From: an uncultured Nitrososphaeraceae archaeon
Lineage (GTDB): Archaea; Thermoproteota; Nitrososphaeria; Nitrososphaerales; Nitrososphaeraceae
Assembly: GCA_963729045.1 (NCBI GenBank)
Contig: CAVSMN010000020.1
Span: 32,001 to 96,000, forward strand
DNA length: 64,000 nucleotides
Direction of reading: 5' to 3'
Under the pieces are notes generated by a model. That model did no database searches. It saw nothing but the letters and a program-made list of their open reading frames with translations, and had not been told where the DNA came from. Below are positions 30,300-51,223 of this stretch, one piece after another (position 1 is the stretch's first letter; each line of letters opens with the position of its first letter). Both the position numbers and the translations under genes were made by a program.

Positions 30300-30531
30300 T
30301 ATTAGTACAAAGTTATAAAACTATATAACGTATTAATAAATACTTTTTACAAAATAGGAAAAATGAAAGAGGTATCTCCTTAGACCTTGTTTATCCCTTA
30401 CTAGACTCTCTTCTTAGATCAAAAAATGAGAATCTAGATAAATGATAAATAGGAATTTCTCTTAAGTAATACTTACACCTGAACCTCAAAGGGTGAAACT
30501 CAAGTCTCATCACTTTTGCGCGTAGTGAGCC

Positions 30532-30743
30532 AGAAAAGTAGTAAAGGCTACATTCATGTGATAAGCATCTTGACAGTTGAGCTAATATGGGTCATGATAC
30601 CACAATCTGATAACCATGATGACAGCAAAAAAATAGATAGGTAACACTCCAATCTATCTTACCATTCTTGCATGAGAGAAAGATACAAAAGCATGAGAAA
30701 GTTCCCCATGTGAACTTCTAATTGATGCCTTTACTACTTTTCT
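30532..30743 (+). ncRNA. Candidate structured non-coding RNA, copy 1
   Basis: Perfect 17-bp closing stem agaaaagtagtaaaggc/gcctttactacttttct, internal hairpins, motifs shared with 51096-51223, followed by a T-tract. Confidence 0.6.
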
Positions 30744-31129
30744 TTTTTTTTATTAAGTTGATTCCCTAAATGATGGAATAAGTCGGAAAAACTGTTCCTT
30801 TGAGAATTCTATATTTGACACCCATAATAATTCAACATGATGGAGAAATAGAGATCTGAAAATATCCACTATACAAAAAACTTATTTTCTAATTCAATAC
30901 TCACAATACAAACTAAATATTTTCAGGTCCTAACAAAATGTTGCACTAGACTGTATGTTGTATTCATAATCCACTCCAACGCATCAAGCCAAACATACAT
31001 TCTTTTAGTTTCCGAGTGCATGGAAGGGAAGTAAGACATCTAGGGTTTCTCACCAGTTCTCCTCTATTACTTCCCATTCCATTTCTACTCATCCATACTT
31101 TGGTGTTAAAATTAGTCATTAACCCCTAA

Positions 31130-31284
31130 ATGCATTTAACCCAAAAATGGTCACCTTCTGGGACAATACACAAGGTCCCCAGATGTTGATTGCATCAATG
31201 AAAAGCGGTGTGACATATGTTAATTATCATACCGAATAAAATTCAAATAGTGAAATTAGAGGACAAATAATGAGCATAAGGTAG
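31130..31284 (+). pseudogene. CHRD-domain C-terminal remnant
   Basis: LIASMKSGVTYVNYHTE*NSNSEIRGQI resembles the CHRD YVNVHT..NP.GEIRGQI motif, with an in-frame stop. Confidence 0.6.
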
Positions 31285-31675
31285 ATACTTCAGTCATAGC
31301 TTCTAGAAGGATGAAAGTTAAAATGGACGATAGTATAGGGTTTGAATAGGGAATTGGAAATACATCAGTAAAAACACCAGGAATAGATGTATGAGTAGTA
31401 AGAGATTAGCGTGTTTTTTCCCTCGATTTTACTAGGATAGCCCTACACAAAGAAACCAGAGTAGATAAAATAACTCTTTGCGATCATTAAACCAGCAATC
31501 TTTTGATTTTCAAGTTAAACTCTTCCAAAATTACTATCAATTTCATAATTTATTCACATTATTAAAAGTCTATAAAACTAATCATGAAGAAAAAAATGGC
31601 TCTATTAGTATAGTTCTTTCCTTTGTGCTTCAGCAAAAATTAGCTATTTAGTTGGAAAAAAATATGGTATATAAA

Positions 31676-31870
31676 TTAAGTTGTTTTTATTACTTTTCTA
31701 AAATGTTCTAGGTTCTTTGCCATTTCTTCTTTGAATGACTCTTCTGTATACCCATGAACTTCTATCCCATGTTTTTTCGCATTTTCCATCAATTCTTCTT
31801 CTGTTTGGCCATACATGGTATGTGTACACACAGGGTCTCCCGCATCCTTGCAATTGAGGCTTAATGTCAT
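31676..31870 (-). CDS. DUF1059 small metal-binding protein
   Basis: CKDAG..C...GQTEEELM....KHGIEVHG. Confidence 0.85.
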   Translation of the reverse strand: MTLSLNCKDAGDPVCTHTMYGQTEEELMENAKKHGIEVHGYTEESFKEEMAKNLEHFRKVIKTT

Positions 31871-32103
31871 AAATTGTAAATGCTATGCATTAAGTTAAGG
31901 ATATCTATCAACTTCCAAGTTTGAACGGAATCACTCATGAAAGACTGACACAGTCTTGATATATCGAGTTAGTTTCACGTATTGATAAATCAGATCAAAA
32001 ATTCCAGAAACAGCTATCAAATAATGATAATGAAATTAATAGAGATGCTTAGTTGTGAGCTACGGATAATAATAATCCTGTCAATATTGGACTTTTTCTA
32101 CTA

Positions 32104-33366
32104 TTATTCTATCACATTAAATAACCCCATCCATCCTAAATCTGAAAATTCATTAATATGCGAATGGAACATGTATTTTCCAGGATAATGATAATTGAAT
32201 TCCAATATGCCTCTGTCACCTTGACCTAGTGTCACTATGTCGTTTTCAAAAGAAGGTTCTTTAGAAGTTCCACTGGGGTAGTATTTGTACATATTTCCAT
32301 GCAAATGAAATGAATTGACTTGGTCAAACTCTAACATATTAATCAGGTAGATACGATAGTTCGTGTTCATGTTAATAGGAATTGGGTTTTCCACATAATC
32401 AAATGCTTTACCATTAGCTGTATAGACTTCATTTCCGTGTTCAAATTCTTGTGGCATATAGTCTTCTATTACTTCTTGAGGAGTTGGAATACGGCTGGGA
32501 CCAATTCCTTCTTTTTCATAGTCTAAATCATATCCGTTCATCATCATTACCATCTCAGTCATATTTTGTCTGGGTGTCTTTGGATCAATAATAAAGGCAC
32601 CATACAAACCTTTGTTGATATGCTGATCAATTGGAGAAACATGACAGTGATATGGATAAACACCATATGGCTGGGCTGTAAAGACATAGGTAAAGTTTTG
32701 ACCGGGTTTAATATATCCCCCAGGTCCATCTATTCCATCCATATTAGAAGGATGTGTGGAATGTAAATGCAGTGAATGCGTATGGTTGTTTTCTTTACTG
32801 TTTATTACATTTATTTTCACTAAATCGCCTTCTGTTACCCGCATAGTGGGACCAGGTATCGTACCATTAAAAGTCCATGCATCAAAAAATGTTAAACCAT
32901 TACTTGCAATCGGTATGGATTGATTTTCCTCTATAATCAAAGTAAATTCCCTAACTGTTTGATTGATTCTGTTATCATCAGTTGTAATACTATTTGACTT
33001 TACATGACCACAGTTAAAAAAAGTCAAATATTCTATTGAAGATGGTTTCTTATCGGTATCAGGACTACAATTCTTAATCTTGTCATACTCCTCAGTAGAG
33101 AGTAAATTCTTGCTGGTACTACTACTGCTATTATTATTGGAGGCAACAAGAGAACTGTCGTTAACCAAATTACTTTGTAAACCTGAAAGAGAATTAGGAT
33201 TTAAAGTAGAATTTATCTGTGAATTCTCATTGATTGGACCTTGAAAAGTCGTCAAATTATTATTAGTTGCCATTATAGGATGAAGCGAATAAGATAAAAA
33301 AGATATAGCAATGAAAGCTACTAACAATAGGATAAGATTCATTGTCAAAAAATTTGGATTTCGCAT
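32104..33366 (-). CDS. Secreted two-domain multicopper oxidase (T1 site in domain 1)
   Basis: WTFNGTIPGPT, HSLHLH, YPYHCH...H..KGL, NSFHLHG, YMFHSH. Confidence 0.92.
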   Translation of the reverse strand: MRNPNFLTMNLILLLVAFIAISFLSYSLHPIMATNNNLTTFQGPINENSQINSTLNPNSLSGLQSNLVNDSSLVASNNNSSSSTSKNLLSTEEYDKIKNCSPDTDKKPSSIEYLTFFNCGHVKSNSITTDDNRINQTVREFTLIIEENQSIPIASNGLTFFDAWTFNGTIPGPTMRVTEGDLVKINVINSKENNHTHSLHLHSTHPSNMDGIDGPGGYIKPGQNFTYVFTAQPYGVYPYHCHVSPIDQHINKGLYGAFIIDPKTPRQNMTEMVMMMNGYDLDYEKEGIGPSRIPTPQEVIEDYMPQEFEHGNEVYTANGKAFDYVENPIPINMNTNYRIYLINMLEFDQVNSFHLHGNMYKYYPSGTSKEPSFENDIVTLGQGDRGILEFNYHYPGKYMFHSHINEFSDLGWMGLFNVIE

Positions 33367-33421
33367 AAATAAAACCTTTGATTTATTGCGACATCATATC
33401 ATTATTTCATATCATATCTTA

Positions 33422-34350
33422 CTACTTATATGGCAACTTTTCACCTATATCTTTTAATGCCGAAATTGCAGTATCAACGGTCATGCTTGGACCTGCTGTC
33501 CATACCAACAGTGTCTGTTCTGAACCCGTATCTCTGGCTAATCCACGAAGATCCTTAAAAGAATATGTGCTGTCTATTGAAAACCCATTACTTTTAAAAT
33601 CCTGAACATATTCATCGATATCTTTTGTTGGAACCATAAAGACTCCAACGGTTTCTATGTTGGTATCGGATGCAGTCGTGATGATGATGGAGTATTAGTG
33701 GCCTGAGTCTGTGTTTCTTCATTTGACGGAGTAATAGGGGCACTGGTACTAGATCCAATAACAGTGTTATTTGCATTTGAATTTAAGACATTGGGTTGGT
33801 CTACTACTTTAATATCGCCCTTCATTACAAATCCTTTTTGTACTGCTTCTTGGTCAATATCTGGACTCATATATCCAAAATCCCCTACTGTATTGAAAAC
33901 CATTGGGTTAGATGCAGTAAACTCTGGTAACGTTCCACTATCAAATAAACTTTGATCATCATTTAGTATAATGCTATGTTCGTGGCTTACGTCACCGCTA
34001 AACCAAATAACCTGGGTTCCTTTATTTATTATTGCTGTTTGGGGTAGAAAAGATTGCTCAATGAATCTGTTTTCTTTGGCTTCTCCGTTACCATGATGGG
34101 CTTCATCAGGTATCAATATTATTAAATTCTTGACATTATTTCCTAATACAGCAGTTCCCGTATCGTAAATGGATTTAGCATCTATATTCGGTTGAGTTTG
34201 GGTATTATTTAATGTTGTAGCAAATGCATTAATGTCATCAGTGGAATCATAATTTAAACTAGTTAATGCCACTGTCAAGATAAATACAAAAATTCCAGAC
34301 AAAGCTATCGTTTTATTTCCTTCACCTAAGGTCATAATTTTCTTATACAT
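33422..34350 (-). CDS. Cupredoxin-like secreted protein, frameshift near 33670, directly upstream of the multicopper oxidase
   Basis: IPDEAHHG, FLPQ.A.INKGTQVIW, DVSHEHSI, FDSG, MKGDIKV; C-terminal part in ORF 33422-33637. Confidence 0.75.
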
Positions 34351-34841
34351 TTGTTTACTTAAATAATGAGTATTATAATATACATCCAACAAATTACGTT
34401 TCCCTAATTATAACTTCATTCTACTAAAGTAAGTTTCTATAAATTATTATGTAACAATATATCGATCATAATCTAAAGGATAACCAGAGAAAGACAGATA
34501 ATAATTTTGAATCAGAATAAAAATCCTATCTTTATAGATTCAATCCAAGATTAAATGTCGACCGTAGATTAGAGTGTACTTTAACATATATAATCACCAT
34601 TATTTTTGAATAAATATTTAAAGATAAACAGTATTACGATTAGTAATATGCGAGTTAATAATATAAGATCCGATTATCAATAACCATTTCTAAAATATTG
34701 AATTTTCAAATACAGAGATGATTATGGTGGAACCCGCATTAAATGACTGATATAATCCCAAAGTCCAACAGGTTCATTGAAATATCATTAATGCATGACT
34801 AGATTCAATTAAAGATAATTATTCTGAAATTGACTATCCCT

Positions 34842-35049
34842 AATTTTTCAAAATTTTTTTTCTCTTTGCATCGAGTTGTGAGTCATATTGTTTATCAAGA
34901 CATTTTGATACTTTTAGATCGTTTTCAACTTCATTTTTTTCCGCCATGAGCTCCTAAATATCCGTCTGTAGATCTTCAAGTTCCTTAATTTTTTCATGAT
35001 GATGTGGATTTTCTACTAGATATTGAACTAAGTCGATTATCGTAGCCAT
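34842..35049 (-). pseudogene. Coiled-coil gene remnant with an in-frame stop; homologous remnant at ~7390-7470
   Basis: MATIIDLVQYLVENPH...DI*ELMAEKNEVENDLKVSKCLDKQYDSQLDAKRKK. Confidence 0.45.
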
Positions 35050-35433
35050 GTCTTTTTGATTTATTAATTAACTGACAATTTTTCCTATATTTACTAAATC
35101 CAAACATTTTTCTTGGATTTTTATAACCTAAAATAAAAAAAATATTAGCTATTACTAATATCCTATCTAATAGCTCGATACTACTGTTATTTTCTTTAGA
35201 GCTATGTTGTTTAAGCCGAAAAACAACATGGCTTTAGGTTTATTTATAATTTCAAAACTATTCAAAGATAGATGAATTGTAAAGATAGGAAACATAGAAG
35301 TATTATTGGTTGCTTGCTAATTCTTTTTCTTGTGTAAAGACAGAGATAAAATGCCAGGACATGTTTGTGTCATGTTTCAACTGTTTTGCCTGTTAGATAA
35401 GATTATTAATAAATATCATAAAATATAACCCAA

Positions 35434-35459
35434 GGATTCGAAGCCCATCGGGTCGATTA
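35434..35459 (+). repeat. tRNA 3'-end-like repeat copy (well conserved)
   Basis: ggattcgaagcccatcgggtcgatta; 20/26 identity to the 46225 copy. Confidence 0.75.
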
Positions 35460-35509
35460 AGTAATAGGCTATACTAGATCAAGTTTTAAAAATATAGTCA
35501 TTTTAACCA

Positions 35510-36262
35510 CTACTGTTTTAAAGTGAGATTAAATGCCATTTGTAAATTTGGGTGTACTTTCCCATGAACGATTTCCATAATTTTCGAAGGTTGTGAAATG
35601 TTCTCAATATTTTCTCTCAGCTCATGCAACGATTTTTTGAGAAAGGGAACTGTGTTATTATCTACGAATGTTGTATCTTCAGGCTCTAGTTCTTTTTCAT
35701 AAATTTCAATCATCCTTAATGAGGTTTCCAAGGCATTATTATATTGAGATTTGTCTTTAACAAGTACAACATGTTGATTTTCTAAATCTGGTGAATCGTG
35801 ACTAGAGTGATTAGCAGTATCTACCACTTGACTACTATTCATTTCTAACCCGTTGGCTAATGAGAAATTCATATTAAGCATAATGTTTGAAGGTATCCCA
35901 AATGCATAACCATATTTTCTAAGAACTTCATCTCCTAAATTGGCCATCATAGTTGCGATTATGGTGTTGTTATAGAACTGATCACTATCAACAAGAAGAG
36001 AATCCTCGCTTACGAGGATATCATCAATTATCTCATTAATGTTATCCACATGGTCATTTGACAATGATTCGCTTTCATTATTTGAACCATCTACCAAGCT
36101 ATTGTTTATGAGTCGGTTTTCAATCAATATCATGTTTATGAATGTAAGAAAAGTTGAATTGTCATCTGTATCAAAGTTATGAGCAGTAACAATAATTCCA
36201 AATACATTTACAAATAACAAAGACAAAATTAAGAAAAGTGAAAAAAGTAAGTGGATTTTCAT
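35510..36262 (-). CDS. Secreted helical protein with His at the predicted mature N-terminus
   Basis: Signal ...IIVTA|HNF; C-terminal MEIVHGKVHPNL. Confidence 0.8.
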   Translation of the reverse strand: MKIHLLFSLFLILSLLFVNVFGIIVTAHNFDTDDNSTFLTFINMILIENRLINNSLVDGSNNESESLSNDHVDNINEIIDDILVSEDSLLVDSDQFYNNTIIATMMANLGDEVLRKYGYAFGIPSNIMLNMNFSLANGLEMNSSQVVDTANHSSHDSPDLENQHVVLVKDKSQYNNALETSLRMIEIYEKELEPEDTTFVDNNTVPFLKKSLHELRENIENISQPSKIMEIVHGKVHPNLQMAFNLTLKQ

Positions 36263-36343
36263 TTATGGAACACACTTATATCCTGAATGTAAGATCAAGA
36301 TAGTCATTCAAAGACATTTATAAAAAAAATAAGATTAAGATTG

Positions 36344-37402
36344 CTAATTAGGCTTGAATACGACTATACGTGAGTTACCTGTATCAGCAATATACACCGT
36401 CCCAGAGTCTTTATCAACACCTACGCCTTCGGGATCAAGTAATTTCCCCTCATCCTCATTGGGTCCACCAAATTGTGTAATGTATTGGCCATCACTTGTA
36501 AACACTTGAACTCTGTTATTATTCTTGTCAGTAACGTAAATATTATCGTTACTATCTATAGATAATCCAGAAGGCCCTTGAAATTCACCATTGGCTACAC
36601 CTTTTGTGCCCCATTGAGAAAGGTAGGTACCATCGTTACTAAACTTCTGTATCCTGTTGTTGCCATAATCAGCTATATACACATTCCCATTGGAATCTAC
36701 TATAGAACTTTCAGGATTTGAAAGCTGGCCATCACCCTCACCTTCAGAACCCCATCTATTTAGAAATTCACCATTTGTTGAAAATACTTGGACACTTGGG
36801 TGGTCCCTGTCTGTTACAAACAGCTGACCTTGTGCATCATTTGCTGGAACATGTGGATGTAAGAATTGGCCATCACCCTCACCTTCAGAGCCCCATTTTG
36901 TTAGAAAGGTACCATTATTATCAAATTTTTGTACCCTAAAATTGAATTGGTCTGCCACATAAATATTACCTTCGGAATCCATTGACAATGCAGATGCTTT
37001 ATGAAATTGGCCATCACCCTCACCGCCTTCTCCAAATTTAGCTAAGAAATTGCCTTCAGGATCAAATATTTGGATTCTATGGTTTGCATAATCTGGAACA
37101 AATACCCTTCCATCAAAATAGTCAACATCATTCTGACCACTAAATTGGCCATCACCCTCACCTTCAGAGCCCCAATTAGTATAATAAGTAAAGGATAGAT
37201 TCTGAGGTTGAGATATAGATTGTCCAAAAGCCATCGGAGAATAGAAATCCAATGTAGTCATCATTGTAATACCAAATAAGGCTAATGCCATGGGCATGAA
37301 ACATCCCGATACCCATTTACCTTCATTGACATTAAACAAATTCAACATTTGTTCATTTCCATAACTTTTCATACCAGTTATATTCTTTTTATCAGACGAC
37401 AT
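36344..37402 (-). CDS. NHL-repeat six-bladed beta-propeller protein
   Basis: Repeated WGSEGEGDGQF...D..GNIYVAD..N.R.QKF units. Confidence 0.92.
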   Translation of the reverse strand: MSSDKKNITGMKSYGNEQMLNLFNVNEGKWVSGCFMPMALALFGITMMTTLDFYSPMAFGQSISQPQNLSFTYYTNWGSEGEGDGQFSGQNDVDYFDGRVFVPDYANHRIQIFDPEGNFLAKFGEGGEGDGQFHKASALSMDSEGNIYVADQFNFRVQKFDNNGTFLTKWGSEGEGDGQFLHPHVPANDAQGQLFVTDRDHPSVQVFSTNGEFLNRWGSEGEGDGQLSNPESSIVDSNGNVYIADYGNNRIQKFSNDGTYLSQWGTKGVANGEFQGPSGLSIDSNDNIYVTDKNNNRVQVFTSDGQYITQFGGPNEDEGKLLDPEGVGVDKDSGTVYIADTGNSRIVVFKPN

Positions 37403-37684
37403 ATTTTTACGCTGAATGAATGTTACTATTGGTACTATAAGTATTTTTCCTTGATTCTCATTGTTACTATTGTGAAGTATATATTCAATATATTTAACAT
37501 AAGTAATAATTTATCATGTATTTTAGAAATCAAAACTTAATGGACTATGAGGTTGATCACATGTAATCGATCCTTGAGCCATCGCGATGATATCAATGCA
37601 AATAAATTGTAAATAGTATTACAGATACAAAAATCAAATAATTCATTACTTTTTATGATAGTAGAACTGTTTTCATGATCTGAA

Positions 37685-37870
37685 TTAAGATTCATAATTA
37701 TCAACACTCTCGCTAGACAAGGACAAAATCTTGTAGGATATATTTGAGTATAAATCATTTTCACTACTTTCTGCGAAATTGTTTCCTTTAGTTAGATAAA
37801 TAGTAATAAAAAAGCCAAGAGAAATAACAAAACCAAGTAGTGCAAGTAGTAACAGATCATTACCCTTCAT
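37685..37870 (-). CDS. Small single-TM protein (possibly continues into 37537-37764 by frameshift)
   Basis: MKGNDLLLLALLGFVISLGFFITIYL. Confidence 0.4.
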   Translation of the reverse strand: MKGNDLLLLALLGFVISLGFFITIYLTKGNNFAESSENDLYSNISYKILSLSSESVDNYES

Positions 37871-38607
37871 GGAACCAACCCTTTATGTGGTCAATATATC
37901 CTTTACTAAATTTGATATTTACATTCTCTAAACATTTCAAAAACTATTAGACTGGTTTGTTAAAAGTATTAAAAATTTTTAATAATCGAGTAGAAAAGAC
38001 TCAACCATGGCAAATGATCATTACCCAATTCTATCCAGAAATCATTTTATGCAAATAACAATAATAGTTATGGTTATGTTTTTATTTTAATCTGTGATGG
38101 TAGCAGAATGATAAGGGGCTCCACATTTAGGACACATTGCGTGATCACAAAGACATTCTTTGCAGTAATCATTACTTGCCTCAAATTCAGTTTTATCTCC
38201 TTTATAATAACATATCTCGCATACTAATTCCACCATTATTATAAAGTTAAGTTGTCGCAACTTAATAATTTATTCATGATTTACATAGAAGGAAGGTCAT
38301 TGACAATTAACTTTTCTTGATATAATACCTCCTATGGTCATTATTGACTATAAGAAAAGATAATTGAAATTGTATATTCTCAGCGGGATATAGGTTGTTG
38401 ACAGATTAATGATCTTGTATTTTTATTTGCTAATTAATTGTATTTTCTATTACTCTATTATCTTAATGTCTTGATTTATTGCATTATTAATTAGATCACC
38501 GAAAAAACACTTCAACTAAACAATAAAAGAAAGGAATAGATCTCATAAATCAGTGGATTAGGAACCGGTGTTTCTTATGTCACATATTTTTGCTAAAGTG
38601 TTGCTTG

Positions 38608-39168
38608 TCAGTGTAGTTTCTTGACTAAAAATAAAATAGCTCCTATTGGTATGAAAAGAACAAAAAGTAGTAACAAATAAGGAGTATCTTCCGTATATAA
38701 GTGGCTCGAAACTAAAAGTATTCCGTAGATATTAATCACTATTGAAGGGGCAACTAGTGCTACTATTAATAATTCATAATACTTTGTAATCACAGATGAT
38801 TTACTCGTTGGAGATCCTTGATCTGATACCGCTATTGTTTTAGCTGCACTCTGAATTCTTAATCCCAAAATAAAAGACGATGTTCCTATCAGGAAAGAAA
38901 CTGCAGTAAGAATATTACCAGTAAGTCCAGGAACAATAGCTAGCGGCGCGCCTGTCCTTGTTTGTGATTGTGATTGTATTTGTTGTTGTGCTTTTACAAT
39001 ATATTCATCGTCAAACGATAGTAAAGAGAGGAATATAAGTAGAAATGTAAATGTCAACAAAGAAAAAAACATTAAGTTCATTAAATGACTAGCCAACAAC
39101 ATTATCGACATACTCACAAATTTATTCATTCTGAAAGTTCGGTAGAAAATGAATGTAGAATTATCCAT
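38608..39168 (-). CDS. Membrane hypothetical protein
   Basis: Several hydrophobic segments; start uncertain. Confidence 0.7.
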   Translation of the reverse strand: MDNSTFIFYRTFRMNKFVSMSIMLLASHLMNLMFFSLLTFTFLLIFLSLLSFDDEYIVKAQQQIQSQSQTRTGAPLAIVPGLTGNILTAVSFLIGTSSFILGLRIQSAAKTIAVSDQGSPTSKSSVITKYYELLIVALVAPSIVINIYGILLVSSHLYTEDTPYLLLLFVLFIPIGAILFLVKKLH

Positions 39169-39547
39169 AATTATTCAAAATGTGTGATTATATTGCTAAT
39201 TCAGCAAATTGATGGAATAATAGGTTTTTAGAATGTTTATAACTTTAACATCCTAACTATGACCCCTCAGGAATTATTATTTATCTAACTTCTTTTCTAA
39301 TTTGAATTGCAAAAAAAATTAATTTATGCCAAAAGTTTTATCTAATATTTTGTCTGTTACCGGTATCTACCATAAATCACTTTTTCACCTTAATTGAAAA
39401 ATAACAAATCAGTATCATCCAATAAGGTCTGTGGCAGGATCAATGTCAAAAATTATTTACCGAAGGAAAAAGTGTAATCTATGTTAGATCAGAAAAAACA
39501 TCATTATTTCATATTGGTGAAATTTAAATACCAATGCTTCTAGAGGA

Positions 39548-40093: not shown

Positions 40094-40552
40094 ACCTATA
40101 AGGTTTATTACTTTTTTGTGCTAATCGATTAACAATTTCAGTTCAGCATTTTCTCTTTATTTTCAACCTACGATAATAGCCTGATCAGTGGGGCATTTGA
40201 CCGAACATCTTTAGTCTATATAACAGGAGTAGGTGATAACCTAGTGATGCATGGTTTACAGGACAATGACTATAATCATAATTTTTAAGCATAATATCAT
40301 TCAAATACCAGTAAAGGATCAGAACCGCTCAATTTAGAAAACAAACCGTCCCTCGACGACAGTATGTCAGTAATGTCCTAATTAATCCTTTTAATAGTGA
40401 AAATATCTTAACACAGGACTATGCTAGATATGGCAGTAAGATGCTTCTAATTTATCAAGATTTTGTCAAATTGAACTATTTTTTACATTTTATGAAAATA
40501 AATGTACAAATAATATTACATTATTAAATCATTATTAAGTTGTAGTTAACCG

Positions 40553-42340
40553 TTATTGAATTATCAAATCGACTATTTTTGATATTGCTATGTCACCTCC
40601 ATATCTTGCAGTAATTGTTAAGGTATAATTTCCCGGTGTAACGTCTCCTTCAGTGGGTTTAACTTCCAAAGAGATTTTGTACAGTGTAGAGGGTCCTATT
40701 TGAGGACTATTTGATGATACTGATCCTAAATCTTCAATAGGTACACTATCTTGACTAAAATTACTTGTAAGATTACCAAGCTTTCCATCTTTAGATATAG
40801 AAGAGGTTATCGACAAAGTAATATTTACAGGTTCAATTAACCCTTTATCACTACTGCTTCCATTAGCATTACCAGTTGTAGGATCCATGATCTTGGAGGT
40901 GTTAAGGATATTTTTGTTTATGAATATATCAATTGCATCACCAGTCTTGTTTTTACCATCAATGGTCATTTTGTCTTTGGAAACTGATAGTGTAATTGGA
41001 ATTTGATCTAATTTTTCTTTAGGAATGACACCGAGCTTGTTCTCGGTCCATTCTGTAAACCAAACAGAACCGTTATGGTCAAGAATAAATCTTAATGGAT
41101 TTGAAGAATTAACCCATAATGGATTTTTGGATGGAATATAATATTCAACAAGAGTCCTATCTTGGGGATTGTATGAAGCTATGGCATTTCCATAATGTTC
41201 ATTAAACCATACTTTTCCATCTCTATAGGTATTAACATACGGCAATGTGGTCAAATTGCCTGATTTGGATGGGTTTGATGTAGCATATTGCATGACTGCC
41301 CCTGTTTTGGGATCTAAAGATAGGAAAAGATTTGCTACATGGCTATTAAACCAAAGAAGTCCATTTTCATCTTCAGCAATACTGAATGGAACACTATGAG
41401 TATGATTTACATCATGAATAGTTAGTGCTCCATTTGGTATATCATATTTAATTAACTGTCCTCCTACAGGAAAAATAGAAGTCGAAAACCATAGTGTTTC
41501 ATTGACATTGCTGTTACTATTATTTTCCATTTCATTAGGATGAGGGAATCCAATTCCATTGGATATAGGACCCATCGTTTGAAAGTTGATCTGTTTAGAC
41601 ATATCCAGTTCTGAAATGCCCTCTGTTGTATTGTTAATAACCTTTGAGGGCTCCAGAAATCCAAGTCTTTGGCCAAAGACCTGTGTAAACCATACGTTAT
41701 TGTCAGAATCAAATGCTATTGATAAAGGATATCCCCCTTCTTGAAGTAACCTATAGTTTTCAAACTTTCCTTCTTTAACAAAATATTTCCATATGGAATT
41801 GCTTAATTCGTCGGTAAACCACAAGTCACCGTTTCGATCAAACTTCATTTCCCAAATCATAGAACCTAAGTTTCTTTCCTGCTTTGGCCAATTAGGTATC
41901 TTTATTATTTTGTCAAACTTTTGGGTTTGAGTATTAAAAATGAGGAGATTTCCTGATTTTCCAGATGCTATCCAGATATTGTTATCCTTATCTACGGCCA
42001 ATCCAACGGGTTGGCTACAAAGAATCGGAGTAATAAACTCGTTAAAGTAAAAGTTAGAGTTTTGAACATTATCTCCACATAGCAATGGCTTGTCTTTTTC
42101 TGTCAGTGTTTTTATAACATCGGTATTAACATTAGTAGAGTTAGAATAAGGGTTATTATTGATTGCTGATTGATTGATATTTGTTAAAGGATTTGAATTA
42201 GAAGAATTTGAGGTTGCATATGCATTTACGAATTCAAATAACTTGGGATTCTCATTATTTACAAGGAAATGACTTATTCCGATGATCATTATAATGCTAA
42301 AGAGAAAAACCCCAAGAATCTTACGTAGGCAACAATACAT
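40553..42340 (-). CDS. Secreted Vgb (virginiamycin B lyase)-like beta-propeller protein
   Basis: Repeated D..G..WF(T/N)E blades; WFNEHYGNAIA; C-terminal Ig-like PGNYTLTI. Confidence 0.85.
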   Translation of the reverse strand: MYCCLRKILGVFLFSIIMIIGISHFLVNNENPKLFEFVNAYATSNSSNSNPLTNINQSAINNNPYSNSTNVNTDVIKTLTEKDKPLLCGDNVQNSNFYFNEFITPILCSQPVGLAVDKDNNIWIASGKSGNLLIFNTQTQKFDKIIKIPNWPKQERNLGSMIWEMKFDRNGDLWFTDELSNSIWKYFVKEGKFENYRLLQEGGYPLSIAFDSDNNVWFTQVFGQRLGFLEPSKVINNTTEGISELDMSKQINFQTMGPISNGIGFPHPNEMENNSNSNVNETLWFSTSIFPVGGQLIKYDIPNGALTIHDVNHTHSVPFSIAEDENGLLWFNSHVANLFLSLDPKTGAVMQYATSNPSKSGNLTTLPYVNTYRDGKVWFNEHYGNAIASYNPQDRTLVEYYIPSKNPLWVNSSNPLRFILDHNGSVWFTEWTENKLGVIPKEKLDQIPITLSVSKDKMTIDGKNKTGDAIDIFINKNILNTSKIMDPTTGNANGSSSDKGLIEPVNITLSITSSISKDGKLGNLTSNFSQDSVPIEDLGSVSSNSPQIGPSTLYKISLEVKPTEGDVTPGNYTLTITARYGGDIAISKIVDLIIQ

Positions 42341-42618
42341 TATGATATAGTAAGATGTTATATAGAGTTAATATCTGTTATTGTACAACTACAGTATTAC
42401 GAAATTACGTTTAACATAGTCATACGGATAAAAATTATAATATGTTTTAAATACAAAAATATTATCAACTTTATCTAGTTTCAATCATTTCCAGGAGATA
42501 TAGTTAGACGTAATAACAGAATTCAGGTCTTGAAGCAATCTGGGCCGTTTGCTATAATCGCTCTTTATGGTCTAGATTATTAATAAGATGTAAACATGAC
42601 AGCATTGGATTAGATGAT

Positions 42619-44112
42619 CTATCCACTCTTTGCTCTTTGAGTAGTAGAAAGGGACGCTACTTCATAAATTTGCTTTTGATTCTTCCTAAAATTTATTATG
42701 CCAAAGATTGATATAATTATTGACAAAAATATTACAACGTATAGAAGAGTCAAATTTGATGCAAATATATCATTTGAACTATGGACATTCAGGGTACTTT
42801 GATTCAAATTTTGGTCCATCGATTCTAAAGAGGGTGGAGAAGTTACTGTTAAAAATGACGCAGCGACAAGGACCAGTATCCCTAACACGGATTCTATTTT
42901 TAAGGATTTATTAATTTTTCTCAAGAATACCCCACTGTTTGACTTTAATTCCGAATCTTGATAGGCTGCTGAATTGCGTTTAATATTGGCGTTACTAGTT
43001 GAAATTAGTTTTGCATAATCGTATATCTTGACTTGGTTATAACGACCGATAAATATCATTGGAAAAGCCAATGAAAGTTTTATTACAAGTATTAGACCGT
43101 AAACGGAAGTAAACAAGGATGACAAATTTTGCAAGTGTACGAAGGCCAAGTACAATCCGGTTATACCTATTACACTGATAGCAGTAACAGCGATAAAAGA
43201 GAAATACATCAAACCTTGAGTCATTTGTTCTAAAACTCTCTTTTCTGAGCTAGGCGGTACAACATTTGAATCAATATTATTGTTGCCATCCGCAGGTTTA
43301 GAATGCCTCTTTACAAATAAGACTGTAAGGTAGAATAATCCACCTATCCAAATAGATACAGACATGAAATGAATCCAATCTACCGAAACTGCTAAAGATG
43401 AAAATGAATCTAATGAGTTACTATGACTTATCATACTATTAGAATAAAGATTGAACGAACCCAATACAAGAATGGAAAACAAAAGTATCCGATCCAATTT
43501 ACCGTAGCTAGGGGCAATTTGGTTCGGGTCTAGATCTTTCCCTTGATTCAATCTATTTTTCTTGTTGATCTTTTTCCTTATCTTGATGTGATATGATATT
43601 AAGATGGCAATTATTATAAAAGAAGTAACAATCCTCAACATCCACACATCTCCAACAGGAGTTGAATAAATAATCCAAAACGCTGATGACAAATCAAGTT
43701 CCAAATTTTGTGCTAATTCATAAGACGAAAGTAGCATTATTCCTGTAGAAAATACGATAATTGATATGCAGCAAATCAGAAGAAAGACCACCAACTTGCC
43801 CGACGTATGATAGAAAGAAGTAGAAACGAATTGAACTACACTATTTTCTTGAGCTTTCTTATTATTACGAAGAGTTCTTTGTAAAATGAGATGATTAAAT
43901 ATTAATCCAATAAGTGCAACCTGTGAAATAATTAGCATAGCCTTTAACACTGCGTCATAGGTAGAAGTTACCGATTCGGTTGATGCATCAGAAGTAAAAG
44001 TGTCATCCAATACCTCTTGTGCTAGAGCAACGGGTGATACAAATGATAATGTATATAGTACGGAAATAATTAGAAAAAAAGAAACAAAAGATTTCATTGA
44101 AATCACAATCAA
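42619..44112 (-). CDS. copD: CopD-family copper transport membrane protein
   Basis: MISHS, DWIHFMSVSIWIGGL, GITGLY, YGLILVIKL, IESVLGILVL..A..LT..PP. Confidence 0.85.
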   Translation of the reverse strand: MIVISMKSFVSFFLIISVLYTLSFVSPVALAQEVLDDTFTSDASTESVTSTYDAVLKAMLIISQVALIGLIFNHLILQRTLRNNKKAQENSVVQFVSTSFYHTSGKLVVFLLICCISIIVFSTGIMLLSSYELAQNLELDLSSAFWIIYSTPVGDVWMLRIVTSFIIIAILISYHIKIRKKINKKNRLNQGKDLDPNQIAPSYGKLDRILLFSILVLGSFNLYSNSMISHSNSLDSFSSLAVSVDWIHFMSVSIWIGGLFYLTVLFVKRHSKPADGNNNIDSNVVPPSSEKRVLEQMTQGLMYFSFIAVTAISVIGITGLYLAFVHLQNLSSLFTSVYGLILVIKLSLAFPMIFIGRYNQVKIYDYAKLISTSNANIKRNSAAYQDSELKSNSGVFLRKINKSLKIESVLGILVLVAASFLTVTSPPSLESMDQNLNQSTLNVHSSNDIFASNLTLLYVVIFLSIIISIFGIINFRKNQKQIYEVASLSTTQRAKSG

Positions 44113-44474
44113 ATCCCTCTAAATTCATGTATGAGAAAAAATAATGTAGGTTCCAATTCTGAAGCAAGAGTATTTTTCTCAGCCAAAGTGTCTACCTTTA
44201 ATGAATTTTCAAGTCCTGTAACTGGTTGTGTGGTATCTGCTTCTGTACTTATCAGATCTATCATATTTGGTAAGACAACTGTTAATTCTACGTTAGTCCT
44301 ATCATCAACAGCCACCTGTTCGTTGGCCCACTTCACATTCATCAGATGATTTTTTCCATCAAAAGAATACAAAGGTATCTGTCGTCCAAATAAGAATTGT
44401 GAATTAGGTAAATTGAACAAAAGTGTTAAAATCCCAAAACAAAGGACCATATTCCTTAGAATTTGATGGATCAA
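44109..44474 (-). pseudogene. Truncated duplicate of the 22977-23600 gene
   Basis: LRNMVLCFGI, WANEQVAVDDRTNVELTVV, QPVTGLENSLKVD; homology stops at ELEP; upstream sequence also duplicated. Confidence 0.8.
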
Positions 44475-45701
44475 CGTTATGTCTAATGTGTACAAAAAAG
44501 TATATAACCAATCTAGTTCAATCATCGAAGTCGATTTTTGACGATAAAAGGAAATTAAATCAAAATTTTTTTAGAAACAGAACAGGCAATTTGTTTGCAT
44601 TAGCAGCAATAGGCACAGATTTATTTTTATGTCTAAAAGTAATTTGCGGACTGTTGATCGACAAAATATGACTAATACGCCTAAGAATATGATGTATCAG
44701 CGGGTCAATTTATTGATTTGGGAGTTCTTGATGCAGGCGAATATGGTAGTTATCGAATCAATTGATTCCTAATTTATCTTGATCCGATTTGTAATACATT
44801 CGTTGAATGTACAAGAAGTCATATTAATTATGAATTTGAATAAAGATATGACCTTGACCTAGTCATAGAAACAAACAACAAAGCAAAGATACAAATGTCT
44901 CTTCGTGGTAGTAAATAATGGCAATAAATCTACGCAATCTTTGTCATTATTTACTATCTTGCTGCAATTAATCGAAAATGATCCTATAATAAACATTTTC
45001 CAAATAGATAAAAATGAAGGCGTTTCATCAGTAACGTCTATACACCAAGGAATATATAAATAGATACTGTTAGAGAAGAACTTTACAATCAATTTTAGAA
45101 AAATAAACCATTGTATAGAATGGAGGATGGCAATCGATCACAGGTATTTCCTAATATTCAATGGCTGTTATTCAACTTTCTTTTTCAAGTAACTTGTTAT
45201 CATTATGTTTGTCAACTGAAGTGTGGCAAAATATGATGATCCAATTATTATAAATCTCCCGATTTCATTTAATTGCAATTACTATTTTATAGTAAATATT
45301 TTAATTGAGTATCTGTTGGTTAATATTTATGAAACAAATTATGAATATGATGACAAATCCACTGTAAGATCACCAGTAGCAATTTATTGAAAATTAAATG
45401 TAGGAACAAAAGATTTCTGATTAAAAATATCCTGGAATTCTTGTCTATTTAATATCTGTAAATTCGTCTATTTATGGATGGCTTATATTGAAAGGAATAT
45501 GCCCGACATTAATTCATGTCAATTATCATAATATTATGTCCCCCGAATGTCGAAATTATTTCGTCCTATTATATGAAAATAATCTATATGTTAGAACAAC
45601 ATACTTTAACAATATAAGAATTCAAACTAGGGGATTGATGCAGTTGAAGTTCCCGGTAATGTAAAAATTGGGCCTAGTGTATAACATTTCTCGTTTGTTC
45701 T

Positions 45702-45878
45702 TTATAGACGTACTCCAGAAGAATACCAATTTCCATGCGAAGCTTCTGTAAAAAGTACTATAACTTCTTCTTTGCCAACCTTCAATATTTTAACTAAATC
45801 TTCAGTAATTGCTTCTGCTAATCTATCCTTTTCTCTCTGAGTTCTCCCACTATACATTTGTATATTAACTATGGGCAT
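45702..45878 (-). CDS. 4-oxalocrotonate tautomerase family protein (58 aa, below the ORF-track cutoff)
   Basis: MPIVNIQMYSGRTQREKDRLAEAITEDLVKILKVGKEEVIVLFTEASHGNWYSSGVRL*; Pro1, GRT, NW motifs. Confidence 0.9.
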   Translation of the reverse strand: MPIVNIQMYSGRTQREKDRLAEAITEDLVKILKVGKEEVIVLFTEASHGNWYSSGVRL

Positions 45879-46224
45879 GATAATTAATCATCATCGATAC
45901 TAATAAGATTTCAGCTGAGGCAGAGTCTAGCGCTACACCCTCATGTAATAAAATACTTGAACAAAAAAGAGAAAATGGTCTTTAATCAACAATGTATTAA
46001 GTCAGCCCAGGTAATTCAAATTATAATCAATCCAAACTACAAGGACAGTTCACAGACCAGAATAGCAACGTTGTTTCCTGATGTCCTTTTTTCATTTAAA
46101 ATGCAGAAAACCTGACAGAATATTAAAATTTTTTACTTCAAATGAACCAATACTATACTTTTTTGGTAATCCAAAGATTCAATATCGTATATATTGTCTA
46201 TCAATAAATTGCTACTAAAACAAA

Positions 46225-46250
46225 TGGCGGGCCCGGTGGGCTTCGAATCC
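46225..46250 (-). repeat. tRNA 3'-end fragment (T-loop, acceptor strand, CCA), att-like; best-preserved copy
   Basis: Reverse complement GGATTCGAAGCCCACCGGGCCCGCCA; no tRNA 5' half adjacent. Confidence 0.8.
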
Positions 46251-46623
46251 AGGAGGTAGTTGAGAACTGATGTTTTATTTATTGTTTGGATACCATCAAT
46301 ACAATATTACTAATTCACTTAAAGAATTGTTGTTACAATAGGTCCTGTTCGTTAAGTGTAGACATGTTTCGTGGAGTTAGCCAAACTACTAATGCTTTGA
46401 TTACAATAATAAGATGACAATTTGATTGGGTGATTTCTAACTCACACGAATCTCAGCATTACTTACTATAAAATATATGTTCTAAATTGATTTTCTAACA
46501 CATTTATTTCAATATCTCGACTACCTTCCTAGCTAATGCTTTCCAAATTAAAAAATTTTGGTTGGAAGTCTGCAGATGTTTTGGTAAATGATGCACCTTA
46601 AATTTGTATATGATAATAATATC

Positions 46624-46725
46624 TTGATCTACTAGGTATTGACACCTAATCAAATGTTTGATACTTTGATCTACTAGGTATTGATACCTAATCAAATGTT
46701 TGATACTTTGATCTACTAGGTATTG
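46624..46725. repeat. 42-bp tandem repeat (2 units plus partial)
   Basis: ttgatctactaggtattga(c/t)acctaatcaaatgtttgatact at 46624, 46666 and partial at 46708. Confidence 0.9.
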
Positions 46726-47599
46726 CCTTCGATATTCTATCCCGAGGATACAAAGGCTACCATATTGTCTGGTGCAGATGGATCAACAGGAAATGCTTAT
46801 GAGGACCTCTATATTGCGGAAGAAGAAAACGCTACAATCACGTCAGGATCGAATCAAACAACGAATACAAATAATACTAAAATAAAATAGTAACGATAAA
46901 ATCTATTCTCTATTACTCAATGTAATTTATTATTTTTGAGAATCAGCCATAGAACATCATAACCACTTTTCTATTATCCTCATTATTCATGGTATGAATA
47001 TGGTGTATGGTCGAGGGAGAGTAAATGGTAGTATTATTACCTAATGACAATCTGTTGTAGTTGATCTGGTATAAAATCCCCATTATTGAGCAGCCCGTGG
47101 GGACTAACGACAAATTTGAATGGACTTGAATTCTTATCGAATAAACTGATAAAATAGAATAAAAGTTAAAAGGAAATAGACCACGTTAACAAGAATCACC
47201 ATCGAGTCATAGTTGAACTATTTTTAGAACTGACATGGTGTAGACTTAGAGGTTTCGAATGTATATGATATTTAAGCTTTAAAATTTTCACAAAAATTTA
47301 CTCTAAAAAAGGAAGATAATTTGGAAATTTTGCTACAAGAATTTTTTAGAAAAGTTGCATAGACTTTTATCTTGATAATAAAAATATTGTTTATGGATAC
47401 CAAGTTTTAATTGAACTATTTTAGGGTTGAAATACACCAATCACTTTGATGTAAGGTTGATAAAATAAGAAAAGGATTATCAATTATTTGGAAACAGATA
47501 CTCCCTCAGCAAGATTGATAAAAAGTTCTTTAGGAATATGTCCTTTTTGATTTGTGACTTGTTCGCGACAACTTTTTCTGTCGTATCCTTATTGAAAAT

Positions 47600-48781
47600 T
47601 CATTCATTTTCTTTTTTTCTCTTTGCTTTATCAAACATCTGTCTAGCAAATGCACCCACAAACGCACCTGCAAAAATGCCGATGAACTGTCCATATGTCC
47701 CCCAGAAGTCTTTAAATTGATCATCGATACCCTTGGGTGGAATTACTGTTACTGTCAAGTTTACTGGCTTTGTTAAATAGCCTACAGTTGGATATTTTTT
47801 GGATAATTCAAACTTCGGATCTACCGTCCCACCTAGTGGCGCGTTAAATGTTGGTTTTGTTGTTGTGGCCATGGATGGCTCCCTTATTGTAACAACCAAA
47901 GGAATCGTGTAAATGCCAACAGGAGTTTGTTGAGGAACATCTATATTAATTAAAGGAGGTTGATTTCTTTGGATAGTCACATGAAGTTCACTTGAATTAA
48001 AACCGGATCGAATATTGTAATCATTAATTTTGCTGTTAAAACTGCTAGTATCACCCAAGGTTATATTAATGACATCATTAGAAAAACCAGAAGTGGATTT
48101 TATCCGAGCTGGAATTAACTGTTCTTCACCTTGCCTAATAGTTATATCACTTGGTGAAGTGGATATTTCCAGGCTAGGAGGAGGTATAGTCACCCAGTTA
48201 GTAAATTGTCTAACTTCATTGGGTCCGATTGACTCTGCTGAATAGAATAATAAATTATATTCAACGGGTGAGTTTATAGAACTCAGATCCAAATTTATCC
48301 TAACATAACCAGGACCTACAGATGATTCGGTATGGGATTGAGTAAAGTTCGTTTTAGATCCTATTAACATATAACCACCGGTCGAGGACAATTGGTAAAG
48401 ATATCCACTTAATTTTCCATCCACTGATTCGATATAAAAATCATAATCTGCACCGTTATATCCTGTTTTTGTGTTGGCGTCTGCATCAATAAGCATGCCG
48501 TAACTTAATTTTCTAGAAGATTGATTATCAGTAGAATTAAAAGTAGAAGAATAATTGCCAAAACCAGAATTCAACCAAATAGTAGTGTTTAAAATCTGTC
48601 CATCGCTAATATAATTGACTGCCAGTATGTCGGTATAGCTTGATTTTAAATATGCATTACTGTTGCCATATGTTTGAACCCAGTTACGATTTTCATTTAT
48701 TAGTTCTTGAAGCTCAAAAGCGGGTGACAAAGCCATAGCTACATTATGCAAAAAATCTTTGCTCAAAAATGATAATAACAA
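47600..48781 (-). CDS. Surface protein with Ig-like domain and C-terminal TM anchor
   Basis: TDILAVNYISDG, IDADANTKTG, GIYTIP, FWGTYGQFIGIFAGAFVG followed by a basic tail. Confidence 0.8.
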   Translation of the reverse strand: MLLSFLSKDFLHNVAMALSPAFELQELINENRNWVQTYGNSNAYLKSSYTDILAVNYISDGQILNTTIWLNSGFGNYSSTFNSTDNQSSRKLSYGMLIDADANTKTGYNGADYDFYIESVDGKLSGYLYQLSSTGGYMLIGSKTNFTQSHTESSVGPGYVRINLDLSSINSPVEYNLLFYSAESIGPNEVRQFTNWVTIPPPSLEISTSPSDITIRQGEEQLIPARIKSTSGFSNDVINITLGDTSSFNSKINDYNIRSGFNSSELHVTIQRNQPPLINIDVPQQTPVGIYTIPLVVTIREPSMATTTKPTFNAPLGGTVDPKFELSKKYPTVGYLTKPVNLTVTVIPPKGIDDQFKDFWGTYGQFIGIFAGAFVGAFARQMFDKAKRKKENE

Positions 48782-49289
48782 AAAGAAAGAAATAACTGCA
48801 ATTGAACTAAGAAGATCGTATTTATTAAACTGTATTTACCCCTAACGTTGTAAATTGTATTATAGGGGACTAAAAACTTTTTCTTATGAGGATTTCTTGA
48901 ACAAGGATAAAATTCTTATCCGGTCTTTTCCCATATCCATTTTATCATAGATTATTTAAGGTTCCTAATTATCTATCAAATCTAATAGCATTAATTTTGA
49001 TACAATTTTAATCAATTAGCTATAGACACCATATGTCCACAAAATGAAAAAGAGTGTGTCAAATCATGAAGACTTGCAAGTGTAGTTACAACCGTTTCTA
49101 TTTTCCATCTGTTCGGGTGGAATTAGTCAACCTGATGTTGTTCCGTTGGTTTTGACTTTTATGGACAGCATTTTTTAATGTAGGTAGAATAAATATTTAT
49201 GAATCTACAAAATGTAAAAAGTTTTTCATAATAATATTTATTGAAGATTATTTATAGTATCAAAAGGCAATACCAAAAAATAAAAACTG

Positions 49290-49908
49290 TTAGTGTTTGA
49301 ATTTGTGTCTTATATAAATACTCAAGGGAATTATAATCAACCAAAAATATTGCGCGATATTTAAGTTGACAAAAGAAACGATGACGGATAATAAAAATAC
49401 TAAAGGAAGAACTAACAGTTGGATAAACAAACCTTTCTTGAACAGGGGATGAAGGTTTTCACCTACGGCATTGATCCTTATTGCATACCACCAAATTACA
49501 ACAAGTGATGTACTTGCGGCAATAACCACTCCATAATAAATCAAATATGCGACCCGATATGAATCAAAAGTTATGACCAAAGATGTGGAGATGGATAAAA
49601 GGGTTATTAAGAGCAGAAAAAACAAGTTCAGATAAACCATAGAGAGATATGAATCCTTAATGTGATTGAATACCTGATGATATGAAACCCAGAACATGGC
49701 AATAATAAAGAAACTAAGAACGTAGCTTTCTACTTGGGAAGACATATCAAATAACTTTTCAATGAGTTGTGGTTCAGTAAGGTTTGAACTGAGATCCAGG
49801 AATATCAATTGTCAAGGCCATCAGAGTTATAGCGAATGCGAATACTGCATCACTAAATGATATAACGTGTTCTAATCTTATTCTGGGTGTGAATGCCTTT
49901 GTTGACAA
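49290..49908 (-). CDS. TMEM175-family potassium channel (frameshift near 49800)
   Basis: Upstream frame MSTKAFTPRIRLEHVISFSDAVFAFAITLMALTIDIP joins the ORF with SYVLSFFIIAMFWVSYHQVF. Confidence 0.88.
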
Positions 49909-50315
49909 ATTGAATAACTCAAATTAAAAAGATACCATTTTAAACTTTGTTCTATGCTTTTTGTATATTTCGTATCGAATCAATGTACGTACTTTTTTTG
50001 AATCTAATAAGCAATCACTTGCACTGTTCTTAGAGTTTAAATGAATTGATTTCAATAGTTTGAAAATGCTTTATTAATAAAAACTTTGTAACAGAGTTTC
50101 TAACGCAAATGTTGAAAGAATGAATGATGCTGTTGATTGGATTACGTGCTTTGGCATAATGGTTCCTCCCTCATGACTATACAATACTATTAGACTATTG
50201 GTTGTTTATCTGGATTAATAACAATAAGACAGGTAATATCGTATAATTACAATTATTTGCATCCGCTTGCATAAGATACGTCGTAATTAATACCAATGAA
50301 ATTGCTTTTTGTATT

Positions 50316-50879
50316 ATGCAGAATCTTAAACCATTAATATTTTTATTTGCTGTTATCATAGTTTCTAGTTTTGTTTTTATCGGATCCATCTCAAATCCTG
50401 TAATGGCTATTCCTCCACAATTAATCGATGACCAGTTTGTTTTTGGTCCAATTGCTGGACTTTCAGAAAATGAAAGTGGTGCTGTTGATTGGATTATGAT
50501 AGGAAACTGGAGATTAAACATAGCAAATGATACGGATATTCAGAATAATCAATCCTCAGATGTCTTTAATGCTGCTATTGAAATGATAAAACCTGATGGC
50601 ACAGCAAGACATACACATACCCTAACAGATTTTGTTGTTTTAAATGTGTCTCATCCAGACAACAACTCTACGCTATATAATGGAACATCGACGATAAGTT
50701 TGCAAGCTGGTCCCGCAACCGATATTCCTACCTCTATACAAAAATCAAATGACAAAGTAATAATCATAAATATCGATCCGGAAAGTGTGGATAATCATTT
50801 TGGTAAGTTACCTATTTACGGTATTCGATCTGATCCCCAATTTATGCATAATTCACCCATGTCAAAACTAGTCAAGTGA
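50316..50879 (+). CDS. Secreted HxH-motif beta protein, paralog 2
   Basis: WIMIGNW, MIKPDGTARHTHTL, NGTSTI, HFGKLPIYG. Confidence 0.8.
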   Translation: MQNLKPLIFLFAVIIVSSFVFIGSISNPVMAIPPQLIDDQFVFGPIAGLSENESGAVDWIMIGNWRLNIANDTDIQNNQSSDVFNAAIEMIKPDGTARHTHTLTDFVVLNVSHPDNNSTLYNGTSTISLQAGPATDIPTSIQKSNDKVIIINIDPESVDNHFGKLPIYGIRSDPQFMHNSPMSKLVK

Positions 50880-51095
50880 ATTGGGTATCGAGTTTTCCAT
50901 CAGTATTCTGCCCTCCCTTTCCTAGTTTGGATTTCTCGATAAGTCGAATAGTCACAATATTGTTATTACTATTTGAAATTTAGAGTATCAGATTGGAGAT
51001 TATTGGCAATCTATAAATAACCGATGAATCATCTATTATATACCTACCAATTCATGGAAGAGGATCACTCTTTCAATTGAACGAATACCTACCAG

Positions 51096-51223
51096 TGTGG
51101 AGTAATAAAGGCTACATTCATGTGATAAGTATGATGAAAAAAAAGTCAGTAATGACCTTGTTTATCAAAATACAAAAACGTGGAGGGTTACGAGACACCT
51201 ATTGATGCCTTTATTACTCCGCA
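51096..51223 (+). ncRNA. Candidate structured non-coding RNA, copy 2
   Basis: 17-bp closing stem tgtggagtaataaaggc/gcctttattactccgca (one G.U pair); GTCA-GTAA-TGAC GNRA hairpin; shared motifs with copy 1. Confidence 0.6.

Follow-up and report, generated by a model that had tools for sequence, protein, structure and literature searches.

A stretch of 64,000 nucleotides (nt) from an uncultured Nitrososphaeraceae archaeon (assembly GCA_963729045.1, contig CAVSMN010000020.1, positions 32,001 to 96,000 of the forward strand; hereafter the window) contains three copies of an element that belongs to a new, well-supported family of structured RNAs. Compensatory changes maintain its helices, between which the unpaired bases are nearly invariant; that the members are real structured RNA genes is very likely. 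The reading that we prefer, with a probability of roughly 60%, is that they are undescribed genes for small structured non-coding RNAs, which have their own transcription, act in trans and carry in their invariant core a site for a protein or a ligand. The source genome encodes archaeal AmoA and is therefore that of an ammonia-oxidising archaeon.

Two of the copies, copy 1 (30532-30743, 212 nt) and copy 2 (51096-51223, 128 nt), both on the plus strand, had been noticed in a preliminary description made from the sequence alone, and the common motifs that it placed in them were recovered base for base. These are the 23-base 5' motif AAAGGCTACATTCATGTGATAAG (30543-30565 and 51107-51129), which has two matches in the window and none in 100 shuffles, ACAAAAGCATGAG / ACAAAAACGTGGA internally and ATTGATGCCTTT at the 3' end. 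The closing stems, AGAAAAGTAGTAAAGGC/GCCTTTACTACTTTTCT in copy 1 and TGTGGAGTAATAAAGGC/GCCTTTATTACTCCGCA in copy 2, differ at five pairs, as had been described: four are changed on both sides, one is a U.G, and both stems are paired at 17 positions out of 17. The predicted folding energies are -52.5 kcal/mol for copy 1 (z -4.06) and -42.6 kcal/mol for copy 2 (z -5.83), and in neither case was any of 200 shuffles as good. A third copy, which the preliminary description had missed, was found on the minus strand at 10261-10403 by a model search of the window.

The members have a common plan of four helices, P1 to P4, around a three-way junction. P1 is a closing helix of 14-17 base pairs (bp) or more, variable in its outer part and conserved in its inner part (AAGGC/GCCUU), and leads into the three-way junction with P2 and the P4 hairpin. 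It is followed by the junction strand UASAN, by P2 (UCAUGU/RCAUGA), by an internal loop in which GAUAA lies opposite AAAA, and by the P3 arm, the length of which is very different among copies; after P4 the junction strand (A)UUGAY leads back to P1. The pairing of TTCATG with CATGAG or CGTGGA that had been proposed for a multi-way junction is helix P2 of the family. The GNRA hairpin that had also been pointed out does exist in copy 2, as a GUAA loop at 51149-51152; its place is the variable P3 arm, and the family as a whole does not conserve it.

Alignment A1, made with MAFFT from the 11 copies of the source genome and not fitted to any model, has 83.3% of its pair cells paired, versus 39.5-50% after a shift of the 3' partners by one to three columns. 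Twenty of its 28 pairs change on both sides, and the observed values were reached by none of 500 shuffles. The corresponding proportions are 89.4% (38.7-49.7% slid) for 64 distinct model matches and 90.6% (39.9-51% slid) for 87 copies from at least eight genera, two alignments that lean towards the model. In the 87 copies 27 of the 29 pairs change on both sides, no shuffle out of 500 was as high, and covariation is 0.578 versus 0.208. When 16 diverse copies were aligned anew with MAFFT, independently of the model, RNAalifold gave the same four helices, with 24 of the 28 pairs compensated.

The changes are spread over the helices. For P1, 12 of the 14 modelled pairs change on both sides among the 87 copies, each of the outer nine showing three to five pair types besides the commonest one, and the top pair switches from C-G to A-U between genera. 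P2 has 96-98% of its cells paired, each of its six pairs is changed on both sides in some part of the family, and it switches from UCAUG/CAUGA to GUAUG/CAUAC between genera. In P4 all five pairs change on both sides and 80% of the cells are paired. Because the shuffle control is inflated by kinship, the argument for the structure is carried by the slid controls and by the variety of pair types found in each column.

In the 87 copies some 20 of the unpaired bases hardly vary. The U, the A and the second A of UASA are each present in 86 of 87; the bases of the loop AUAA in 87, 87, 86 and 85; those of the AAAA opposite in 79, 87, 85 and 85; and those of UUGAY in 76 (U), 87 (U), 85 (G) and 87 (A). 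Two G-C pairs of P1 are likewise kept (87/87 and 85/87). The S base of UASA and the base just after P2 (positions 19/238) are combined as C-G in 49 copies, G-C in 24, C.A in nine, U-A in two and U.G in one; they probably form an extra pair, and the swap represents few independent events because it follows clades. A kink-turn, which requires tandem sheared G.A pairs by a 3-nt bulge, was considered at the junction, where the GA of UUGAY is invariant and the opposite strand is UASA; the covariation at 19/238 gives it no support and speaks against a standard G.A tandem.

Among the modelled pairs G.U and U.G amount to 163 versus 72 for A.C and C.A, and in P2 alone to 50 versus 5. This excess, together with the score of copy 2 on the plus strand (96.7 bits, versus 22.3 on the minus strand), identifies the given strand as the RNA strand and supports the earlier remark that the U.G wobble works on the plus strand only. 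The strand bias supports an RNA.

With up to three mismatches, the 5' motif has eight matches in the source genome, versus none for a reversed control; looser scans and inspection brought the total to 11 copies, of which two stand in tandem at a distance of about 300 nt, and no convincing additional 5' core was found in that genome. A candidate twelfth copy on contig C7 (E 0.017) was rejected for want of the core motifs. A covariance-model search of relatives had been proposed in the preliminary description, and the model built here (117 positions, 29 pairs, seeded with 12 short copies) matches 50 of the 151 genomes searched from the same archaeal family, in 11 of 18 genera, with one unpublished genome (G077) that enters this tally and nothing else; the strict 5' pattern alone is found in 29 of the 151. 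Positive genomes have from one to at least 17 scored matches, 24 candidates having been scored per genome, and these copy counts are lower bounds; the complete genomes G001, G032 and G043 have three to nine. No genome out of 20 in genus g14 and a single one out of 21 in genus g4 has a model match. Four loci of other genera (L019-L022) that matched the pattern gave no model match, and a model search of a class-wide sample matched none of 147 genomes from 11 other families. Among the genomes searched, the RNA family is found only in one family of ammonia-oxidising archaea.

Members range from 95 to about 230 nt. In genus g11 the copies measure only about 95 nt, are almost identical in P1, stand in tandem and are often near contig ends; one locus (L097, G036:C749:1970-3004) has three short copies on one strand within 1 kb. 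The position of many g11 copies, at the ends of contigs or on short ones, suggests arrays at which assemblies break off.

No known family accounts for these sequences. The Rfam 15 covariance models gave no match at gathering score in the whole window; up to E=10 the matches were at the level of chance, the best at 17.3 bits versus a cut-off of 47 and 17.9 bits versus a cut-off of 45. With strong covariation on 11, 64, 87 and 16 sequences, this bears out the earlier suggestion of a new structured family. The C/D-box models of Rfam scored 9-18 bits versus cut-offs of 40-75. In the source genome, which is 87% complete, no match was found to the TnpB-type zinc ribbon PF07282 (8 of 14 controls detected) or to Ro/TROVE PF05731 (controls detected). 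In the part of the literature open to full-text searching, no description of such an RNA was found for this lineage. To our knowledge, few structured RNAs of unknown function have been described from archaea.

Copy 1 scores 64.1 bits (E 3e-12) and has a long P3 arm. Its P1 pairs 30532-30548 with 30727-30743 and is followed by the junction strand UACAU (30549-30553), in which the U and both A are the near-invariant bases and C30551 is placed opposite G30697. P2 is formed by UCAUGU (30554-30559) and GCAUGA (30691-30696). GAUAA (30560-30564), of which AUAA is the invariant part, faces AAAA at 30687-30690, and the P3 arm, of variable length and with conserved G-C and U-A base pairs, occupies 30565-30686. 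The P4 hairpin AAGUUC/GAACUU (30699-30717) and the junction strand CUAAUUGAU (30718-30726), which contains the near-invariant UUGAY, complete the structure. In copy 2 the strands of P1 are 51096-51112 and 51207-51223; P2 pairs UCAUGU (51118-51123) with ACGUGG (51178-51183), two of the pairs being U.G, the P3 arm extends over 51129-51173, the P4 hairpin over 51185-51199 and the junction strand UAUUGAU over 51200-51206. Copy 3 extends over 10258-10406 on the minus strand, its model hit scoring 63.8 bits (E 3.5e-12). At the top of its P1 it has GGU/ACC in place of GGC/GCC, with a compensated U-A for C-G. It has a long P4 region, and a close paralogue with similar downstream sequence is found just outside the window (G000:C20:24023-24185, minus strand).

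Several observations concern the surroundings of copies 1 and 2. The locus of copy 1 is kept in the sister species G043; in other genomes its flanks are rearranged or on different contigs and gave no usable pair of loci for a comparison of occupied and empty sites. Close to copy 1, at about 31177-31288 of the window, there is an indel: in G043 the segments corresponding to 30758-31176 and 31288-31995 are separated by some 6.7 kb of additional DNA. An intergenic segment 0.9-1.2 kb downstream of copy 1 (31656-31916, more weakly 31285-31916) is 78-84% identical in four congeneric genomes; it occupies single places per genome, with weaker second matches (68-69%) in two of the four, and overlaps only short open reading frames (ORFs) of 64 and 57 amino acids. 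Either a small gene or a further conserved non-coding element may be present there. The ORF beside copy 1 (29907-30299, minus strand) encodes a multi-pass membrane-like protein of 130 amino acids, and the ORF beside copy 2 (50316-50879, plus strand) a secreted-like protein of 187 amino acids with several paralogues per genome; neither has a Pfam family.

Transcription of the copies was considered first through their upstream sequences. In the source genus 23 of 54 copies have upstream a near-palindromic AATCTAGAT box with a TATA-like TAAATAA after it, at 90-111 nt before the model start in 19 of these 23, and a AATCTAGAT box is present downstream of only four of the 54. In copy 1 this putative promoter region (30431-30453) consists of the AATCTAGAT box at 30431-30439 and of the TATA-like GATAAATAGG at 30444-30453. 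When the 25-base box was searched genome-wide, the best matches (0-5 mismatches) included five sites upstream of copies. These five include the only matches with 0 or 3 mismatches; four further sites in the genome match at 4-5 mismatches. In the source genus the RNA probably has a 5' leader of roughly 55-80 nt, to judge by the spacing of the TATA-like box and P1. Within the presumed leader of copy 1 (30474-30531, plus strand) stands CAAAGGGTGAAAC..CAAGTCTCATCAC, a sequence also found upstream of type-a copies in other species and similar in part, on the opposite strand, to the family word ACAAAAGCATGAG; it might represent a leader hairpin under conservation, or else what is left of a partial copy in inverted orientation.

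Copy 2 has another promoter-like sequence, AATCTATAAATAA (51008-51020, plus strand), which is conserved in the counterparts of copy 2 in four species, and a second putative box, CTTTCAATTG, at 51070-51079. AATCTATAAATAA resembles the TATA-like TTTCAAAT box of other genera, seen by eye 21-31 nt before P1 in several copies from one of them. In other genera a TTTCAAAT or TTTTTAATAA box is seen, by eye and uncounted, some 21-38 nt ahead of P1, a position which would place the start of transcription at the foot of P1. At the other end, the T-tracts that had been reported after both copies do not extend to the family as a terminator. A run of at least four T within 25 nt follows 30 of the 87 copies versus 10-14 in three controls, and a run of at least five T follows nine of the 87 versus eight for runs of A.

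Soil metatranscriptome runs contain parts of a 5-kb stretch around copy 1, and contigs from RNA libraries of three studies cover the element, one of them being that of a paralogue. A contig from X1 matches 30461-30668 with two differences and one from X4 matches 30508-30701 with 10 differences. A second contig from X1, from a relative, matches 30482-30614 and continues 293 nt upstream; a contig from X2 matches 30677-30725, joined to the sequence of a paralogue on contig C12. No weight is given to stretches that lack contig cover, for example 30839-31506.

According to the reading that we prefer, each copy would be a transcription unit of its own and its RNA would act in trans. The invariant core would be the working part, a compact site for a protein or a small ligand, and the RNA would serve as the scaffold of a ribonucleoprotein. 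The A-rich loop GAUAA/AAAA could dock on P1 at its two invariant G-C pairs, by analogy with the A-rich bulge of group I introns, and the variable end of P1 and the P3 arm might merely stabilise or decorate the fold. That the RNA is specifically a protein- or ligand-binding scaffold acting in trans is a tentative proposal, to which we give somewhat less than even chances.

Known systems offer partial parallels for such a scaffold. Like Y and vault RNAs, the members are of about 100 nt, with ends that form a long closing stem and conserved internal loops between variable parts, and several paralogues occur in one genome, each with a putative promoter of its own. They differ from them by the three-way-junction core and by the lack of a sequence or Rfam match, and no Ro/TROVE gene was found in the source genome, which is 87% complete. 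The Qrr1-5 RNAs are likewise encoded by paralogous small RNA genes with a common upstream box, here ATCTAGAT with a TATA-like box; their conserved part is a free seed for messenger RNA, whereas the invariant bases are here in an internal loop and in the junction. As in P4-P6 of group I introns, an A-rich asymmetric loop and invariant G-C pairs, here those of P1, suggest docking in a minor groove, which is an analogy only, with no homology.

A number of points weigh against this interpretation. No partner protein or ligand was found, and the invariant bases of the loops offer no test by covariation. The sequences are related, so that the shuffle controls overstate significance. Contigs of RNA libraries may hold DNA and give no ends, strand or level, and the 293-nt upstream run of the relative's contig could mean that the element is within a longer transcript. 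Copy number goes from none to at least 17 matches per genome, and the many g11 copies near contig ends, with their nearly identical P1, also fit the amplification of a repeat. Finally, the single copy of genus g16 is 96-108 nt upstream of a co-directional Snf7-family gene, which would fit a role in cis there.

The most novel alternative is a catalytic or ligand-sensing RNA of a new class, such as a self-cleaving ribozyme or a stand-alone sensor, switched on in the source genus by a dedicated ATCTAGAT-box factor; we hold it to be not very likely. Its catalytic form, a ribozyme having been named in the preliminary description too, in which the invariant bases would be a putative active site and the copies would have spread as those of hammerhead or twister ribozymes do, seems to us the most interesting rival, and an unlikely one. 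In its favour, the element is a three-way junction with some 20 nearly invariant unpaired bases between covarying helices, and the family is multi-copy, with a changing copy number and tandem clusters, and tied to no gene. The hammerhead and twister-sister ribozymes resemble it in these very respects, with covarying helices at a junction that bears invariant unpaired bases and with many copies, sometimes clustered and independent of genes. Their models nevertheless do not match, and the conserved words UASA, GAUAA/AAAA and UUGAY differ from their cores. No Rfam ribozyme is matched even at E=10, no cleavage site can be named, and a dedicated promoter box and stable orthologous loci are atypical of known ribozyme repeats.

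The stability of the loci bears also on the possibility that the copies are a non-autonomous mobile DNA repeat, comparable to miniature inverted-repeat transposable elements (MITEs) or to doublets of repetitive extragenic palindromes (REPINs), the stem being then its inverted ends and the fold being of importance in single-stranded DNA or not at all. As in those repeats, the copies are interspersed and intergenic, bounded by an inverted repeat, and vary in number between genomes; the g11 copies with their near-identical ends, often near contig ends, would suit it too. The outer stem differs among paralogues and is yet paired, while ends bound by a transposase are expected to be conserved; genus g11 is an exception to the variability of the ends. 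The longest shared flank words of the 87 copies equal those of a shuffled control, i.e. there is no target-site duplication, as the preliminary description had noted for its two copies. Homology reaches beyond the ends upstream, where a promoter box is found outside the element at a fixed distance, and G.U exceeds A.C, which is a strand bias of RNA type.

The loci themselves are orthologous across species. For nine of the 11 copies of the source genome a counterpart with near-identical P1 and homologous flanks is present in G043, and orthologue sets of three types align through their flanks, the core being the best-conserved part. In genus g16 the single copy lies between proteasome-subunit and Snf7-family genes in four loci out of four, in the vicinity of aconitase, CutA and an eRF1-like gene, and is thus syntenic in a housekeeping cluster. 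Pairs of g11 copies have common upstream or downstream flanks, which looks like duplication of whole units, not transposition of a bounded element. The 82 pattern matches in viral contigs yielded no locus that passed the model among the 80 scanned, phage and plasmid BLAST gave no match, and the source genome has no convincing 5' core outside its 11 copies. A mobile repeat is distinctly unlikely and, like a cis-regulatory leader, less likely than a scaffold.

A cis-acting element of the neighbouring gene, as a riboswitch-like leader or a structure of the 3' untranslated region, is improbable. A closing helix with a junction does resemble an aptamer, the position ahead of a co-directional gene is found at all four loci of genus g16, and in the source genome an aldo/keto reductase gene begins 74 nt after the end of the copy on contig C21. 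Yet no more than one of the 11 copies of that genome is followed by a co-directional ORF within 100 nt, the neighbours are unrelated, copies stand in tandem and no expression platform was seen. No common Pfam neighbour was found among 84 ORFs around the copies of the source genome and 38 around copies of other genera, and an all-against-all comparison of 385 nearby ORFs returned mostly orthologous loci, with no neighbour family common to paralogues; its other clusters are of small secreted proteins and of a multicopper oxidase seen twice. The standalone RNA of the preliminary description, apart from coding genes, is supported in this respect. Accessory metal or redox genes seem frequent among the neighbours: multicopper oxidase (twice), ferritin, pirin, a cupredoxin-containing dehydrogenase, a phosphate transporter with PhoU, MsrB and FMN reductase.

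A guide-RNA scaffold, which had been among the first suggestions, is highly improbable, whether of the C/D-box type (box C, RUGAUGA, near the 5' end and box D, CUGA, near the 3' end in a K-turn, with free guides of about 12 nt), of the H/ACA or of the TnpB/IscB type, the variable parts being then the guides: paralogues do differ in P1 and P3 and some copies hold UGAUGA and CUGA words, but the variable parts are all base-paired, members of about 95 nt have only 3-10-nt loops and no free variable stretch, the C/D-box models remain far below their cut-offs, the box words are not kept among orthologues, and no TnpB-type zinc ribbon was found in the source genome, which is 87% complete.

In soils, ammonia-oxidising archaea have a major part in the nitrogen cycle. 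The degree of conservation found in this RNA family is typical of ribozymes, of riboswitch aptamers and of the RNAs at the core of ribonucleoproteins. The covariance model is a marker for the annotation of such genomes, and finding the partner or the activity of the RNA could reveal a new regulatory or catalytic system.

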